From the IMG/VR virus record IMGVR_UViG_2529292729_000023: DNA of 12,295 bases; one strand, written 5' to 3'. Both the position numbers and the translations under genes were made by a program. Of this stretch, positions 1,505 to 11,727 are shown piece after piece (positions within the stretch are counted from its first letter, which is position 1; every line of letters starts with the position of its first letter). The notes below the pieces were generated by a model. It worked only from the letters and a program-made list of their open reading frames with translations, was not told the DNA's origin and searched no databases. Origin of the DNA: a virus (taxonomy: Duplodnaviria > Heunggongvirae > Uroviricota > Caudoviricetes).

Positions 1505-1550
1505 CTGATGAATCCCCTAATGATTTTGGTAAAAATCATTAAGTTAAGGT

Positions 1551-1619
1551 GGATACACATCTTGTCATATGATCAAATGGTTTCGCGAAAAATCAATAAT
1601 CAGACAACAAGATGTGCGA
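1551..1619 (-). ncRNA. IS10 RNA-OUT antisense RNA (pOUT transcript), approximate coordinates
   Basis: Placed from established IS10 biology: about 69 nt, transcribed outward from element bp ~115, overlapping the transposase start (ATG at 1612). Coordinates are mapped from memory of the element, not seen as a distinct signal. Confidence 0.45.
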
Positions 1620-2820
1620 ACTCGATATTTTACACGACTCTCTTTACCAATTCTGCCCCGAATTACACTTAAAACGACTCAACAGCTTAACGTTGGCTTG
1701 CCACGCATTACTTGACTGTAAAACTCTCACTCTTACCGAACTTGGCCGTAACCTGCCAACCAAAGCGAGAACAAAACATAACATCAAACGAATCGACCGA
1801 TTGTTAGGTAATCGTCACCTCCACAAAGAGCGACTCGCTGTATACCGTTGGCATGCTAGCTTTATCTGTTCGGGCAATACGATGCCCATTGTACTTGTTG
1901 ACTGGTCTGATATTCGTGAGCAAAAACGACTTATGGTATTGCGAGCTTCAGTCGCACTACACGGTCGTTCTGTTACTCTTTATGAGAAAGCGTTCCCGCT
2001 TTCAGAGCAATGTTCAAAGAAAGCTCATGACCAATTTCTAGCCGACCTTGCGAGCATTCTACCGAGTAACACCACACCGCTCATTGTCAGTGATGCTGGC
2101 TTTAAAGTGCCATGGTATAAATCCGTTGAGAAGCTGGGTTGGTACTGGTTAAGTCGAGTAAGAGGAAAAGTACAATATGCAGACCTAGGAGCGGAAAACT
2201 GGAAACCTATCAGCAACTTACATGATATGTCATCTAGTCACTCAAAGACTTTAGGCTATAAGAGGCTGACTAAAAGCAATCCAATCTCATGCCAAATTCT
2301 ATTGTATAAATCTCGCTCTAAAGGCCGAAAAAATCAGCGCTCGACACGGACTCATTGTCACCACCCGTCACCTAAAATCTACTCAGCGTCGGCAAAGGAG
2401 CCATGGGTTCTAGCAACTAACTTACCTGTTGAAATTCGAACACCCAAACAACTTGTTAATATCTATTCGAAGCGAATGCAGATTGAAGAAACCTTCCGAG
2501 ACTTGAAAAGTCCTGCCTACGGACTAGGCCTACGCCATAGCCGAACGAGCAGCTCAGAGCGTTTTGATATCATGCTGCTAATCGCCCTGATGCTTCAACT
2601 AACATGTTGGCTTGCGGGCGTTCATGCTCAGAAACAAGGTTGGGACAAGCACTTCCAGGCTAACACAGTCAGAAATCGAAACGTACTCTCAACAGTTCGC
2701 TTAGGCATGGAAGTTTTGCGGCATTCTGGCTACACAATAACAAGGGAAGACTTACTCGTGGCTGCAACCCTACTAGCTCAAAATTTATTCACACATGGTT
2801 ACGCTTTGGGGAAATTATGA
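1612..2820 (+). CDS. tnpA: IS10 transposase (402 aa)
   Basis: Track ORF 1612..2820; product MCELDILHDSLYQFCPELHLKRLNSLTLACHALLDCKTLTLTELGRNLP... matches the IS10-Right transposase as I recall it, full length. Confidence 0.95.
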   Translation: MCELDILHDSLYQFCPELHLKRLNSLTLACHALLDCKTLTLTELGRNLPTKARTKHNIKRIDRLLGNRHLHKERLAVYRWHASFICSGNTMPIVLVDWSDIREQKRLMVLRASVALHGRSVTLYEKAFPLSEQCSKKAHDQFLADLASILPSNTTPLIVSDAGFKVPWYKSVEKLGWYWLSRVRGKVQYADLGAENWKPISNLHDMSSSHSKTLGYKRLTKSNPISCQILLYKSRSKGRKNQRSTRTHCHHPSPKIYSASAKEPWVLATNLPVEIRTPKQLVNIYSKRMQIEETFRDLKSPAYGLGLRHSRTSSSERFDIMLLIALMLQLTCWLAGVHAQKQGWDKHFQANTVRNRNVLSTVRLGMEVLRHSGYTITREDLLVAATLLAQNLFTHGYALGKL

Positions 2821-2833
2821 GGGGATCTCTCAG

Positions 2834-2842
2834 GGCTCAGCA
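2834..2842. repeat. 9-bp target-site duplication GGCTCAGCA (right copy)
   Basis: Second copy of the 9-mer, directly after the IS10 inside end. Confidence 0.9.
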
Positions 2843-3519
2843 GTAACAACCATTACATGAGGGAGATTTCCCTTACGGTTGCGAATAAGATTTAATGCCT
2901 CAGAACGAGCATTCTGGGCCCGGTCGCTTCTTATTGTCCATTTGCAGGAAATACTTGCGTGTAATATTGGTTTCCCACCATTCGAACTCCTGAGAGCTGA
3001 CATGCGGGTAACAGAATCATCCACCAGTAATTCAGGACTGTTGATAACTTGATCACATTCAGGTTCTCTTTCAACAATAATATCTGGTGAAATCGTATAA
3101 TCACTCCCCAGTGCAGCAGCTAGCTGAGGATTACTTTTTGCAGCACTATCCAATGCTATAAGATGGGCATATTGTTCATATTTAGCTATCTCTAATCTGT
3201 TTCTACCAGAAACCTGATGTACATTCCATTTTCCAGGGCGTAAGTGGCTGAGTTTAAAAAAGGTTTTTTCTATAAACTCTGCGCAGATACTCTCAAACTG
3301 ATTACCAGATGTTTGCCCTGCAACACGTTCACCAATCGTTTCAGCCTGCAAGAAGCGAGCAATTTCTCTTGCTATAGCTTTACTGTTTTTGTTACTGCTA
3401 TCTGCGTTACTAACAACTCCGGCAGTATTAATTGTGAGCGTATTCAGTAACAATTGGGCATGAAACTCCTTTCTGGCTTCAGCAAAACCAACTATGCTGT
3501 CAACCAAATCTCCATTCAT
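2834..3519 (-). pseudogene. Type II restriction endonuclease gene, N-terminal fragment (229 codons), truncated by IS10; PD...SxK...E active-site pattern
   Basis: Track ORF 2830..3654 trimmed to ATG 3519 (AAGGAAA 7 nt upstream, 13 nt after the methyltransferase stop). Frame runs ...HVMVVTAEP then hits a stop one codon inside IS10. Contains SPD (D146), SCK (S191/K193) and E207. Reconstructed intact gene would be 292 codons. Confidence 0.8.
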
Positions 3520-3532
3520 TTCTGGATTTCCT

Positions 3533-4657
3533 TCAGGCTGCTTGACTATTCTTACTGATGTTATTCTTATACCGTCCCTGCAAAACTCCATACACATATT
3601 GTGCGATTTTTGCCGCAAATAGCGGTGGAACAGCATTCCCGATCTGCTTTGCAATCTCAGTTTTTGAACCGGTAAAAATGAAATTATCAGGAAAAGACAT
3701 TAATCTCGCTGCCTCACGATGAGTTATTGGCCGATCCTCTTCCGGATGTAAATATCGCCCTTTCTCCGGTTTGAAAAACTCAGTACGAATCGTTACTGAA
3801 GGTCTGTCCCACCACAGACGTCCAAACAAATCGGTCCCTCCAGATTTCTTTTTTAGCCAGCACGCCGGGGTTATATCAGGTCTTTTTTTCTGTAAATCGA
3901 AACGGTTACCTCCTGGTGGAACCGCTTTATATCGCTCCAGAGAAACAGGTGTGGGATTACGCCCAAAATGTAAGTTCAGCGGAGGAAGTTCATTACGAAT
4001 ATCAGTTCCAACAGGAGCAGGTAAGTCACCAATTGCATCACGCGTACAGACCCATTCAGGCAAAGCGACATCCTTATCAGGGGAACGATGCGTTGGTGCT
4101 GGCGGGAACGCCGGAATACTATGCACATCGAAGAGTTCTCGTTTGATACCGATTGCTATCGTTCGTTTTCTTGTCTGAGGTACTCCATAGTCAGCAGTAT
4201 TCAACACCATTGGATTAAGCAGAATAAAGCCCATGGATTTCGCTCTAAACGTAATGTCCGCAAACTCATCGCTTATCAGCAATCCGGGGACATTTTCCAT
4301 GACGAACATACAAGCCCTTGAACGCTCAATGACATCCATATAAGGCTCCCACAATGCTCTTCGGTGATCACCATAACGATTCTTATTCAATAAACTGAAT
4401 CCCTGACACGGGGGGCCACCTATGACCACATCAGCCTCAGGAACAGTATTGCTGGATGCCCACTCCTCAATATTTGCCTGAACTCCATGCAAACCAAAAT
4501 TGGCATTGTAGGTATTTATAGCTGCAGCATTATTATCAATAGCAAGGATACTTTCAAAGTAGTCAGACATCTCTCCATGAAGAAAACCATAAGATAATCC
4601 ACCTGCCCCACAAAAGAGGTCTATCACTCTGAATTTATTTAATTCTTTCATCCGCAT
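3533..4657 (-). CDS. DNA (cytosine-5)-methyltransferase, intact (374 aa)
   Basis: Conserved C5-MTase motifs all present: FCGAGG (I), GGPPCQGFS (IV, catalytic Cys), ENV (VI), QTRKR (VIII), GNAVPP (X). GAGG sits 7 nt upstream of ATG 4657. Confidence 0.9.
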   Translation of the reverse strand: MRMKELNKFRVIDLFCGAGGLSYGFLHGEMSDYFESILAIDNNAAAINTYNANFGLHGVQANIEEWASSNTVPEADVVIGGPPCQGFSLLNKNRYGDHRRALWEPYMDVIERSRACMFVMENVPGLLISDEFADITFRAKSMGFILLNPMVLNTADYGVPQTRKRTIAIGIKRELFDVHSIPAFPPAPTHRSPDKDVALPEWVCTRDAIGDLPAPVGTDIRNELPPLNLHFGRNPTPVSLERYKAVPPGGNRFDLQKKRPDITPACWLKKKSGGTDLFGRLWWDRPSVTIRTEFFKPEKGRYLHPEEDRPITHREAARLMSFPDNFIFTGSKTEIAKQIGNAVPPLFAAKIAQYVYGVLQGRYKNNISKNSQAA

Positions 4658-8214: not shown

Positions 8215-8955
8215 TCAGTTCCTGTGCTGGCTGACGTTCGGACGCCAGCTCTCCCAGTTAAACGTCACCCAGCGACCACCGTTCATGGACATGCGGTCCA
8301 TCACCCGCTCGCCGAGAAGTGTATTCATCGCTGCATGGTTAAGATTTGTCAGCATCCCCACACTGAGTAACGATGCCGTTCTGCGGTCAACAATCTGATT
8401 CAGCGTGACCTGCTCATTACGCGTATCCCGTTGCATGCCAATTTCATCCAGTACCAGCAGGTCAACGCCACACAATCCCTGCAAAAATTTTTCGCCCGAG
8501 TTTTTGTTGTCGTAGCTGCCATGTAACGCCAGCATCACATCCGCCACTGTTATCACAATCACACTGCGACCTTTCGCCAGAAGGTGGTTGCCAATAGCCG
8601 CCGCCAGGTGGTTTTTTCCTGTGCCAGGCCGGCCACTGAACACAAAATTCGTACAGCCGCCTTCCAGCTCTGCCGCAATGGATTTCGCCTGACTCAGGGC
8701 ATGGCGCTGACCATCGTTCTGCACCCGGTAGTTACCGAACGTACACTTCCGGTGAAGCGGCTGGATACCGGAGCGGTTAATGATTTTTTCAACCCGCGTC
8801 TGATGATTCAGACGATTAACCTCCTCGCTTCGCTTACGCCCTTCAGCAAGCTGCCATTCCCGCCACTCCGTCACCGTACGGTACGGAGGGATTGCATCCT
8901 GCGGCACAAATCTGCTGACTCTTGCCAGAACACCACCTGACGTAATGTTTTTCAT
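8215..8955 (-). CDS. DnaC/IstB-like AAA+ helicase-loader (246 aa)
   Basis: Walker A-like [15 protein letters not shown] and Walker B LLVLDEIG; positioned directly downstream of the O-like initiator, as in lambdoid replication modules. Confidence 0.8.
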
Positions 8956-8961
8956 GATGCG

Positions 8962-9939
8962 CTACCCCCTGAAACCCGGCGGAATTTCGGTATCCGGTTC
9001 AGAAATATGATTCACGCAACGCTGCGCGGGACCACGCCACAGTCGAATAACCAGTTCATCCCATTTCTCACGGAGTTTTTCCGGGCTCTTGATGTTTTTT
9101 ATCCAGAACGGATCCCGTTGTGCCCGGCTGAACATTTCGCAAATTTGTCTGTGACTTCTTCCATCCAGCATCCGCATTGTGCGCACGTCATTGGCCCACG
9201 CCGTCCAGTTGGGCTCTTTCGGTCGCGTGATCTCACCATCGTCACTGGCAGCCTGTTCGTACAGGTTTACAACCCGCCCCCAGATCCACTGCGCACATGT
9301 CAAATCCTCCCGGGTTCCCCACTGGCGTTTTTTCACGCTGAACACAACAGCATCAGGATGGCGGGTTAAAAACGCCTGTTCAGCCGTCAACTCGTCCGGT
9401 TGCGAAGCGTCCGGACAAGAGAGTTTTTTATTCTCTGTTGTATTCTCTGTTGTATTCTCTGTTGTATTCTCTGTAGGATCATCGGGCCATTTTGACCTGA
9501 TGACATTGGGCCGTTTTGAACCAATGGAACGTTTCATTTTGACCTCTTCCATCGTGTCATTTTGACCTGATGGAGTGGCGCATTTTGACCCGATGGATTC
9601 GTTCACTTTGCCATCATCTAAAAGCGCGCTATCGTAGTTAATTGTGTAAAAATTAGTCATATCACGCTTCGATTTATTGAGCTTTTCGCTACGCAAAAGC
9701 CCCAGCGCTTTCAGACTTGCAAACGCACGCTTTAACGTTGACTCTGACCAGAACGGAAACTGTTCCAGCCATTGTTCCGTTGTGTTGTAAATCCAGCGAA
9801 CGCCATCACATTCCATGCCGGAACTGGTATCCCTCAACCAGTAATGCAGTTGCTGCAACACAATGGCTTCGTTTAAACCAATCTTCATCGCCAGCTGTGT
9901 GTTTATAACCAGCGGGCGTTCAGCAAAAAGAAGGCTCAT
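8962..9939 (-). CDS. phage replication initiator, O-like (about 325 aa)
   Basis: Track ORF 8962..9981 starts at GTG 9981; first ATG is 9939 (MSLLFAERPLVINTQLAMKIGLNEAIVLQQLHYW...). Two families of direct repeats lie inside the coding sequence, as for the lambda origin inside gene O. Confidence 0.75.
   Translation of the reverse strand: MSLLFAERPLVINTQLAMKIGLNEAIVLQQLHYWLRDTSSGMECDGVRWIYNTTEQWLEQFPFWSESTLKRAFASLKALGLLRSEKLNKSKRDMTNFYTINYDSALLDDGKVNESIGSKCATPSGQNDTMEEVKMKRSIGSKRPNVIRSKWPDDPTENTTENTTENTTENKKLSCPDASQPDELTAEQAFLTRHPDAVVFSVKKRQWGTREDLTCAQWIWGRVVNLYEQAASDDGEITRPKEPNWTAWANDVRTMRMLDGRSHRQICEMFSRAQRDPFWIKNIKSPEKLREKWDELVIRLWRGPAQRCVNHISEPDTEIPPGFRG
9431..9474. repeat. tandem 12-bp repeat TTCTCTGTTGTA, about 3.7 copies, in frame (encodes TENT repeats)
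   Basis: Read directly: units at 9431-9442, 9443-9454, 9455-9466, partial 9467-9474. Translates on the minus strand as TENTTENTTENTTEN. Confidence 0.85.
9488..9612. repeat. six iteron-like direct repeats, core CATTTTGACC, 23-24 bp period; candidate replication origin
   Basis: Cores at 9488, 9512 (CGTTTTGAACC), 9535, 9558, 9581, 9604 (CACTTTGCC). Followed by an AT-rich stretch at 9619-9660. Confidence 0.65.
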
Positions 9940-10441
9940 AATTCCATCCGGCTTTTTGTTGGTACTGGTGACGATAGGCACGCTTGAAAGCGATTGCTTT
10001 TTCTATAAGCTCGTCTGTCTCACGTTCCACAACAGCTGGATCTGCAAAAAGCAGCCCGGACTCCACCACATCGCCATATTCTTTGTTTAACCCGGCAATC
10101 ATGTACGTAATGCTTTTTCCGTCAGTAATTTCGCGGTACAACCTGAAATCACTAATCCGGATAGCCTCCATAATTGCCGGAATCAGCGCCGTGAATTTTT
10201 CACGCTTATCCCTGGTGTCGATAGCCTTCCAGCGTTCGAATATCTTCACCCGGTTAACGCCAAGCGCACGCTGATCAACCCCGCCATCATCAAGCGTGAC
10301 ACGCTGAACATCGATGTTCGGGCGTTCCTGTAGAGCCCAGAAGGCTTCAGTAATTAATATCGTCGCCTGCTCCTGCGTCATTCCTGGTCTGCATACCCAG
10401 GCATCCAGAGCCTCGCAAACCTGTTCAGGTGTGATTTTCAT
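9920..10441 (-). CDS. YdaT-like protein in the CII-equivalent position (173 aa)
   Basis: Track ORF; second gene of the leftward early operon. Product MKITPEQVCEALDAWV...KFTALIPAIMEAI... resembles YdaT-type prophage proteins as I recall them. Confidence 0.6.
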   Translation of the reverse strand: MKITPEQVCEALDAWVCRPGMTQEQATILITEAFWALQERPNIDVQRVTLDDGGVDQRALGVNRVKIFERWKAIDTRDKREKFTALIPAIMEAIRISDFRLYREITDGKSITYMIAGLNKEYGDVVESGLLFADPAVVERETDELIEKAIAFKRAYRHQYQQKAGWNYEPSFC

Positions 10442-10703
10442 TGTTCACCGCCAGTAATTCATTCGCTGTACTCTTACGTCCACAAGGCAGGCCATCGGTT
10501 GGGTTAGGGTAAATATCTGGTCGGAGCTCGTGGGGGGTGACAGTCCACGCCATAATCTCACATAGTTGTAAAACCCTTGATGCAGGGACCTGTTGCCCAT
10601 TAACCCATCGACATACAACCTGCTGTGGCAACCCAATCAAGCGAGCAACACCCGCTTGGGATAACCCTATTTGGCGAATTTTATTTTTTAAACATTTATG
10701 CAT
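10425..10703 (-). CDS. Cro-like HTH regulator (YdaS-like), 92 aa
   Basis: Track ORF 10425..10739 starts at GTG; ATG 10703 has GGAG 8 nt upstream. HTH segment LSQAGVARLIGLPQQVVCRW. Divergent from the repressor gene. Confidence 0.65.
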   Translation of the reverse strand: MHKCLKNKIRQIGLSQAGVARLIGLPQQVVCRWVNGQQVPASRVLQLCEIMAWTVTPHELRPDIYPNPTDGLPCGRKSTANELLAVNNENHT

Positions 10704-10730
10704 ATCGCTAACTCCAATCAATCGACACCA

Positions 10731-10804
10731 CTTATACACTTTAAAAGTTACACTATCAACACTTTCAAGCTGATTGTGCTGGCTACACTTTTTTTGTGTA
10801 AAAT
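10731..10804. promoter_or_regulatory. divergent promoter-operator region of the immunity switch
   Basis: Three ACACTTT-containing sites (10736, 10759, 10785) fitting CACTT-N4-AAGTG half-site symmetry. Leftward promoter on the minus strand: -35 TTGATA (10754-10759), 17-bp spacer, -10 TATAAG (10731-10736). Rightward -10 TAAAAT (10799-10804) ends 7 nt before the repressor ATG. Confidence 0.45.
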
Positions 10805-11439: not shown

Positions 11440-11727
11440 ATGTTACCCGTGTTATGGCTTGAAAGCGCAGATACCGACCTAGATGATATAACTAGTTATA
11501 TTGCTCGTTTCGACATAGATGCGGCAGAACGCTTATGGCAGCGATTAAGGGGGTGTGTGCTGCCGTTATCCGAACACCCGTATTTATACCCACCAAGCGA
11601 CAGAGTACCTGGCTTGCGTGAGATTGTAGCTCACCCTAACTATATAATTCTTTACCGTGTAGCCACTTTAAGCATTGAGATCGTGAGTGTAGTACACGCC
11701 AGACGCCAATTCCCCAAGCAGAACTAA
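11440..11727 (+). CDS. parE: ParE/RelE-family type II toxin (95 aa)
   Basis: Product MLPVLWLESADTDLDDITSYIARFDIDAAERLWQRLRG...PGLREIVAHPNYIILYRVATLSIEIVSVVHARRQF follows the ParE-family pattern. Confidence 0.8.
   Translation: MLPVLWLESADTDLDDITSYIARFDIDAAERLWQRLRGCVLPLSEHPYLYPPSDRVPGLREIVAHPNYIILYRVATLSIEIVSVVHARRQFPKQN

Follow-up and report, generated by a model that had tools for sequence, protein, structure and literature searches.

Phage lambda carries its replication origin in the middle of its initiator gene, between the DNA-binding and the loader-recruiting parts of the protein. At this origin, and at the six-iteron origins of the Stx phages 933W and P27, four to six dyad-symmetric iterons lie about 23 bp apart (PMC7466680). 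Unwinding in lambda depends critically on an AT-rich tract beside the iterons, and single-stranded DNA (ssDNA) is bound by O proteins (PMC7466680). Here we analyse a 12,295-nucleotide stretch of viral DNA (Caudoviricetes; IMG/VR record IMGVR_UViG_2529292729_000023), called the window throughout, in which positions 9391-9618 lie in the linker-coding middle of a phage initiator gene. This region is very probably a replication origin built like that of lambda. A sequence-only reading of the same DNA had proposed such an embedded origin on the lambda paradigm, and the proposal is now supported by the alignment with lambda O, the constraint on the repeats, the covariation between initiator and iterons, and the related IMG/VR locus L188. 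That the region serves as the origin of a lambdoid prophage and opens at a 12-mer array beside its iterons is the account we favour, with somewhat better than even confidence.

The window matches ori-lambda in the mid-gene position of the origin, in the spacing and symmetry of the iterons, and in the order of elements, with iterons followed by an A-rich region, an inverted repeat and a lambda-O-like C-terminal domain. In both, the A-rich region is strand-asymmetric and of low stability, and directly follows the last iteron in the direction of transcription. Lambda's A-rich region is an irregular A/T tract, whereas that of the window is an array of a conserved 12-mer. This array appears to be the counterpart of lambda's unwinding region, but conserved in sequence, and we lean slightly towards regarding it as a sequence-specific unwinding or loading element. 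The two systems also differ in iteron sequence and in partner protein, which is a P-type loader in lambda and a DnaC/IstB-like loader in the window. Unlike lambda O, the window initiator has an N-terminal DNA-binding domain without a match to Pfam family PF04492, and it ends in a DnaT-like tail.

Initiator genes of the RepA_N plasmid class also contain their iterons within the coding sequence (PMC4758243), as the window gene does. The class is described as having no noticeable AT-rich region, whereas in the window the 12-mer array follows the iterons. Solved N-terminal domains from RepA_N theta plasmids of Gram-positive bacteria (pSK41, pTZ2162, pLS32 and pAD1 types) are the best structural matches of the window's N-terminal domain; unlike those plasmids, the window element is a phage, and its initiator has no Pfam RepA_N (PF06970) match. 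Iteron plasmids with RepE, pi or TrfA initiators differ further, since their repeats are direct and their initiator monomers have two winged-helix domains, in contrast to the palindromes and single winged-helix domain of the window. The 13-mers of the RK2 and F origins are bound as single strands by Rep proteins, a mode of binding that is only proposed for the window array. Like these 13-mers, those of oriC and the DnaA-trio, the array is made of short units in tandem, sits in a region of low stability directly beside the last initiator site, and is strand-asymmetric and conserved in sequence, not in composition alone (in part after PMC5043065). Unlike in these systems, the window unit is 12 nt long, has another sequence and lies inside a coding region, and the initiator has no AAA+ domain.

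The 12-mer array and its constraint

The elements of the putative origin are listed below in the direction of transcription of the initiator gene, which is encoded on the minus strand. No strand is assigned to the iterons, which were found by repeat search (iteron 1 by its 23-bp register with the others), or to the inverted repeat.

9596-9618: iteron 1, nearest the N-terminal domain, degenerate in the window's clade (CACTTTGCCA)
9573-9595: iteron 2 (GAGTGGCGCATTTTGACCCGATG)
9550-9572: iteron 3 (CATCGTGTCATTTTGACCTGATG), the most conserved iteron
9527-9549: iteron 4 (GAACGTTTCATTTTGACCTCTTC)
9504-9526: iteron 5 (CATTGGGCCGTTTTGAACCAATG)
9480-9502: iteron 6 (CATCGGGCCATTTTGACCTGATG), abutting the 12-mer array
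9429-9476, minus strand: four-unit 12-mer array, its A-rich strand (ACAGAGAATACA x4) being the coding strand (Tandem Repeats Finder and mismatch search)
9424-9429: A6 run after the array
9391-9419: inverted repeat CTCGTCCGG / CCGGACAAG, just beyond the array (repeat search)

The repeat region had been placed at 9431-9612; it is real, and its true extent, 9391-9618, is slightly wider. Tandem Repeats Finder reports 3.8 copies of the unit TATTCTCTGTTG at 9429-9474 (period 12, 100% matches), close to the 3.7 copies first counted, and a fourth copy with one mismatch reaches 9476. Six matches to the 12-mer with up to two mismatches occur in the window against 1.0 expected, and none of 200 shuffled sequences has as many. 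On the minus strand the unit reads ACAGAGAATACA and encodes TENTTENTTENTTEN, so that the earlier in-frame translation holds and the protein contains TENT four times. The array has a GC content of about 0.32-0.33 and, at the scale of 60 bp, is the least stable part of the gene. Its coding strand is 69% purine and 54% A, compared with 67% purine and 57% A for the lambda tract (GC 26%), and both array strands are structure-free as ssDNA.

Copy number changes between strains, as had been predicted, with 3 to 6 units (strain SJ3, three; the window, four; strain JNE141411, six) and five in an Edwardsiella relative. Among 75 scorable sequences, comprising 74 close IMG/VR relatives and the window, 73 have three units and one IMG/VR locus has five, leaving the window as the sole four-unit sequence. 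A spread sample of E. coli genomes gave 59 full-length matches, of which 57 lack 12 bp relative to the window.

Nucleotide diversity by codon position was obtained from an alignment of 58 distinct close relatives of the initiator gene. Third-position values for its parts are as follows.

N-terminal domain: 0.143
C-terminal domain: 0.196
Iterons: 0.031
12-mers: 0.009-0.010

The usual excess of change at third positions is abolished across both repeat types, and in the iterons the first- and second-position diversity (0.044) exceeds that at third positions. The most constrained 48-nt segment of the gene at third positions is the 12-mer array. Judged from this alignment, the repeats are under cis-acting constraint at the DNA level.

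Beyond the close relatives, the consensus unit ACAGAGAnTACw is nearly invariant and is present in two to five copies directly after the iterons in loci that encode the N-terminal domain; at least two units occur in 60 of 79 diverse genomic loci. Adjacent units are spaced 12 bp apart in 118 cases, 11 bp in nine and 13 bp in two, the latter spacings shifting the reading frame. When the repeat is defined at the protein level, as TE.T, and codon use in the N-terminal domains of the same genes serves as background, 112 motifs are found. Their first threonine is encoded by ACA in 111 of the 112 (background 21%) and their glutamate by GAG in 111 of the 112 (background 55%). The third codon reads AnT, again in 111 of the 112, while the residue it encodes varies between Ile, Asn, Thr and Ser. 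Because GAG is preferred over the more AT-rich GAA, the constraint acts on sequence and not on composition alone.

A scan of IMG/VR for two adjacent units returned at least 120 loci, and nearly all of the matches listed are initiator-sized open reading frames (ORFs) with the array just after iteron-like repeats. Among the 120 loci listed, 75 have an N-terminal domain of the window type and 45 fail its profile (E <= 1e-3). For the seven of these 45 that were sampled, Pfam found nothing significant in the N-terminal part, and in a few others the ORF is truncated by the end of its contig. For the window initiator and seven other array-bearing initiators, Pfam yielded no family beyond weak matches to HTH_36/GntR, DnaB_2 and HNH. 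The C-terminal domains of the listed loci are likewise diverse and include DnaB_2, lambda-O-like and Phg_2220_C types. The array thus stays constant while iteron type, N-terminal family and C-terminal family change, and is independent of all three.

Two loci have unusual arrangements. In L216 an HNH endonuclease domain is inserted between the N-terminal domain and the iterons of an array-bearing initiator. In L090, on a JGI metagenome contig, the ORF terminates directly behind its third 12-mer, with no C-terminal domain following, so that the N-terminal domain, iterons and array form a stand-alone unit there.

Rfam has no match in 9200-9800, and the conservation therefore cannot be put down to a known RNA. 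Overlapping ORFs, at 9179-9565 on the plus strand and 9387-9524 on the minus strand, were considered as a cause of the synonymous constraint and rejected, the array being conserved in many unrelated flanking contexts. The literature searched, with most subscription journals outside it, contains no description of a cross-phylum 12-mer array or of the residue-to-base rule described below.

The position of the array was compared directly with lambda. The BLASTP alignment of the initiator with lambda O begins at the last iteron, and the TENT repeats pair with the peptide encoded by lambda's AT-rich region. Locus L188 has window-type iterons and 12-mers followed by AGATCATTCGTCGCAGAATTCTGGCGAATCCAGCGACCAGCCA, where lambda has AGATTATTCGTCAGAGAATTCTGGCGAATCCTCTGACCAGCCA, and to the right of the array it is nearly identical to lambda's right origin arm. 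With the alignment of L188 anchored on both sides, the array sits exactly at lambda's AT-rich tract.

The inverted repeat at 9391-9419 is the positional counterpart of the one in the right part of ori-lambda. As a DNA hairpin it has a predicted energy of -8.5 kcal/mol (z -2.05). Across 25 distinct relatives 87.6% of cells are paired, and one of its pairs is GC in 15, CG in six and UA in four.

On the other side of the iterons lies the AT-rich segment that the sequence-only reading had made part of the origin.

9620-9680, no strand assigned: AT-rich segment, GC 0.33

Its low GC content is confirmed, and the 12-mer zone is equally AT-rich (0.32). The segment shows an ordinary coding pattern, with a third-position diversity of 0.185 against 0.018 for first and second positions combined, and it encodes the conserved strand ...TNFYTINY at the end of the N-terminal domain. 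It is probably not an origin element. A search for DnaA boxes (TTWTNCACA) gave one relaxed match, at 9643-9651 on the minus strand in the part coding for the N-terminal domain; it is broken by synonymous changes in relatives and was rejected.

The initiator and its iterons

The initiator gene and the parts of its product are as follows.

8962-9939, minus strand: initiator gene, 325 aa, ATG at 9939 (ORF; RefSeq WP_000054521.1)
9619-9939, minus strand: part coding for the N-terminal DNA-binding domain, aa 1-107 (AlphaFold2 model, conservation)
9046-9495, minus strand: lambda-O-homologous part, linker and C-terminal domain, corresponding to lambda O residues 141-270 (BLASTP)
8965-9033, minus strand: C-terminal tail, aa 303-325, ...VNHISEPDTEIPPGFRG, matching the C-terminus of E. 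coli DnaT (PDB 6aep, 2ru8, 9zbt)

In order along the protein come a winged-helix domain, a linker encoded by the origin, a C-terminal domain of the lambda-O-like kind and the DnaT-like tail, with the repeats spanning aa 108-171. It matches PHROGs family phrog_391, 'replication initiation O-like', at 1.2e-90, while Pfam gave no match at E 0.01, Phage_rep_O (PF04492) and RepA_N (PF06970) included. BLASTP against lambda O aligns residues 149-298 only, with lambda residues 141-270 (38% identity over 150 residues, E 7e-25), and the N-terminal 115 residues do not align. The initiator, first read as O-like, is on this evidence only half so: its C-terminal half is a lambda O homologue, and its N-terminal domain is of another type. 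The AlphaFold2 model of that domain is a single winged helix with a predicted local distance difference test (pLDDT) score of 84. Its best PDB matches, 4pql, 4pt7 and 5kbj, which we take to be N-terminal domains of RepA_N plasmid initiators, are weak (TM score 0.61, E 3e-3). As modelled, the domain is a winged helix of the RepA_N/DnaD-like kind, and its identity in relatives across phyla is 48-74%.

The repeat search located five 23-nt copies of the iteron at 9480, 9504, 9527, 9550 and 9573, with spacings of 24, 23, 23 and 23 bp. The unit has the dyad symmetry CATCnGG...CCnGATG; CATTTTGACC is exact in four copies, with two mismatches in the fifth and three in the sixth. Six copies had been claimed initially. 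Five are clear, and the copy at 9596-9618 is degenerate in the window; in relatives from Citrobacter and Enterobacter its counterpart, GTCAAAGTGAC, forms a good palindrome, so that a count of six is fair. Iteron 3 has a nucleotide diversity of 0.003 among the 58 relatives and an identical copy in a Klebsiella phage.

A single GATC (Dam site) lies at 9477-9480, at the junction of iterons and array, and is the only one within 9287-10038. It recurs at this junction in many Enterobacterales relatives and is a possible Dam/SeqA control point.

Scanning one genome per species with the N-domain alignment yielded 80 loci, from Enterobacterales, Xenorhabdus, Pantoea, Pseudomonas, Acinetobacter and Campylobacterales as well as Bacillus, Staphylococcus, lactobacilli, Clostridiales, Thermomicrobiales and others. 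Most of them have two to six palindromic repeats directly after the N-terminal domain, and the repeat sequence is clade-specific, as in GGTCAAAATGACC, GGGCAAATTGCCC, GGACAATTTGTCC, GGATCAAAATGATCC, GCTCAAATTGAGC and TGATCACATTGATCA. Residue 67 belongs to the predicted recognition helix (S-x-X-T-x-K/R-R), and across 62 loci from several phyla it shows perfect covariation with a single half-site base, the one 5' of the CA core.

Residue 67 Ser: base T, 24 of 24 loci
Residue 67 Asp: base G, 23 of 23 loci
Residue 67 Lys: base A, 5 of 5 loci
Residue 67 Ala: base T, 4 of 4 loci
Residue 67 Asn or His: base C, 3 of 3 loci

These loci come from Enterobacterales, Pseudomonas, Acinetobacter, Campylobacterales, Staphylococcus, Bacillus and lactobacilli, and the Ser and Asp classes each extend across several orders or phyla. 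The covariation points to the 23-bp repeats as the DNA to which the initiator's N-terminal domain, the winged helix, binds. The domain probably binds them as dimers, a mode that suits the palindromic iterons.

Some relatives are organised differently. In L144-L169, from Bacillus and Neobacillus, an acidic linker follows the N-terminal domain in place of iterons and array, and their origins may be located elsewhere. In the Shigella Stx phage POCJ13 (L295), the initiator encoded at 1527-2522 (minus strand) has the DnaT-like tail and a DnaC-like neighbour and belongs to another family. Neither iterons nor a 12-mer array is found in it; the corresponding place holds a short AACAGG repeat in three copies, encoding QEQEQEQE.

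The DnaT-like tail may be the means by which the initiator recruits a DnaB/DnaC-type complex, and may suggest that the dnaT-dnaC pair came from a phage. Most of the sampled relatives with about 87% identity have no ATP-binding (DnaC-like) gene after the initiator among the features listed under the match. Two of them, L004 (E. coli 201609) and L005 (phage mEp460_ev081), keep the tail and have a DUF977 (LygF) gene directly after the initiator, with no DnaC-like gene; phages of this type presumably use the host helicase loader.

Many database proteins of the initiator family (P0001-P0120) are truncated at 110-195 aa. Genomic loci were used for the comparisons because the first homologue search gave mostly such truncated proteins. 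Contig ends and gene-call breaks are frequent in the iteron and 12-mer region (for example in L091, L093 and L094). The repeats apparently interfere with assembly from short reads and with gene calling, and the family may be poorly annotated for this reason.

Proposed opening at the array and alternative roles

In the mechanism we propose, initiator dimers would occupy the iterons and distort the DNA, and the adjacent low-stability, structure-free 12-mer array would open. The C-terminal domain and the DnaT-like tail would recruit the DnaB helicase together with the phage DnaC-like loader, and transcription through the gene from the cro-side promoter might assist opening, as in lambda. Given that the 12-mer is conserved in sequence beyond composition, specific recognition of the array, either once open or during opening, is probable. 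It might be recognised by the initiator, through a conserved surface, or by a universal replication factor.

The array could have other roles. The sequence-only reading took the 12-mers as a second iteron family, which would mean that the same initiator binds two kinds of double-stranded repeat, the array perhaps being bound by a conserved surface of the N-terminal domain. The DNA-level conservation of the unit, the tandem and phased arrangement, the direct contact with the last iteron and the constant company of initiator-like ORFs would all suit such a role. The unit is nevertheless invariant while initiator domains differ and the recognition-helix residue and palindromic iterons covary, and the array also stands beside N-terminal domains that fail the profile of the window family. 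The 12-mers are non-palindromic direct repeats 12 bp apart, whereas the sites of the N-terminal domain are 13-15-bp palindromes 23 bp apart, and the position of the array is that of lambda's AT-rich region, not of its iterons. On these grounds the 12-mers do not behave as replicon-specific iterons, and we consider a second iteron family unlikely. Still harder to sustain is the notion that the 12-mers, prone to slippage, serve only to encode a flexible Thr/Glu-rich linker joining two protein domains, with no function as DNA. The array does lie between two folded domains, is in frame and encodes TENT, and changes by whole units; in lambda, in-frame deletions in this part of O are tolerated at the protein level. 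A linker is contradicted by the fixed ACA and GAG codons beside a free third amino acid, by the lowest third-position diversity in the gene, by units spaced 11 or 13 bp that are read in other frames, and by L090, where nothing is linked. We regard this explanation as very improbable.

A further alternative is that the array serves mainly as a joint at which N-domain-plus-iteron and C-domain modules are exchanged by homologous recombination, its conservation reflecting that traffic and not a role in initiation. N- and C-terminal domains are indeed shuffled exactly at the array: the window, with its lambda-O-like C-terminal domain, and the Klebsiella phage ST147-VIM1phi7.2, with Phg_2220_C, have iterons and 12-mers in common, and the C-terminal domains of the IMG/VR loci are diverse also. 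For phage recombinases, 36-70 bp of identity are enough. Against this stand the strong purifying selection within one lineage and an orientation and distance to the last iteron that are fixed across phyla. Both suggest a function in the origin, and the two roles are compatible with each other; as the main role, a recombination joint appears improbable.

Several points weigh against our favoured account of an origin that opens at the array. Origin function, unwinding at the array and iteron binding are all inferred from comparison. Because the compared sequences share phylogenetic descent, there were fewer independent events than the covariation and codon counts suggest. The match to the RepA_N fold is weak, at the E value given above, and roughly one in four distant relatives of the N-terminal domain, mostly from Bacillus and Neobacillus, has neither iterons nor array at this place. 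The second low-GC stretch, at 9620-9680 on the other side of the iterons, could contribute to opening despite having no additional sequence constraint. A simple unwinding element does not need sequence-specific conservation of a 12-mer; such conservation may indicate another function, for example as a binding site or a recombination joint.

Prophage context and significance

The genes around the initiator are arranged as follows.

10425-10739, minus strand: cro-like gene, upstream of the initiator in gene order
9920-10441, minus strand: ydaT/cII-like gene, between the cro-like gene and the initiator
8215-8955, minus strand: DnaC-like helicase loader gene (IstB_IS21/DnaA ATPase domains; phrog_50; NCBIfam PRK12377 at 7.8e-143)

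Immediately downstream of the initiator gene is the loader gene, after which the minus strand carries DUF1627 and DUF977 genes. The strand opposite to the initiator operon has a cI-like repressor gene. The minus-strand gene order is that of an early-right operon in a lambdoid layout. Positions 8900-10000 are identical to a prophage beside ompW in E. coli 88-3493. Coverage of the whole window by any complete E. coli genome is at most 72%, so the window prophage is a mosaic. The element hosting the origin is very probably an E. coli lambdoid prophage. The origin type is carried by 1,755 of 5,426 complete E. coli genomes, and the initiator's N-terminal domain is also present in phages of Staphylococcus, Bacillus, Listeria, Vibrio, Pseudomonas and Klebsiella.

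Elsewhere in the window, a DDE transposase gene of an insertion sequence (IS) element (1612-2820, plus strand) is separated by 10 bp from a restriction endonuclease gene of the NgoMIV family. The endonuclease gene and the C5 cytosine methyltransferase gene paired with it lie at 2830-3654 and 3533-4657, both on the minus strand, and the IS element may have disturbed this prophage-borne restriction-modification system. The immunity-side region of the prophage contains a ParE/RelE-family toxin gene (11440-11727, plus strand). Tandem Repeats Finder also reports a 15-bp tandem repeat of 1.9 copies at 355-382.

The origin itself belongs to the known lambda kind, while the cross-phylum array and the residue-to-base rule have no description in the literature searched. 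More tentatively, the ACAGAGAnTACw array might be an unrecognised, near-universal origin element of a large phage initiator superfamily, guiding opening and helicase loading as a functional analogue of the DnaA-trio for non-AAA+ initiators. That superfamily would combine a RepA_N/DnaD-like winged helix with exchangeable C-terminal domains in Gram-negative and Gram-positive hosts. The array would be recognised sequence-specifically, most likely as one single strand, by a conserved initiator surface or a universal replisome component. We offer this broader proposal as possible but doubtful.

How initiators without ATPase activity open DNA is still an open question (PMC5043065). A conserved repeat at the proposed unwinding site would provide a handle on such opening, within a single system found in both Gram-negative and Gram-positive hosts. 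The rule linking residue 67 to the half-site base could help to predict origin specificity and incompatibility or to re-engineer them, and the 12-mer array offers a simple sequence tag for finding origins in the genomes of temperate phages and prophages.

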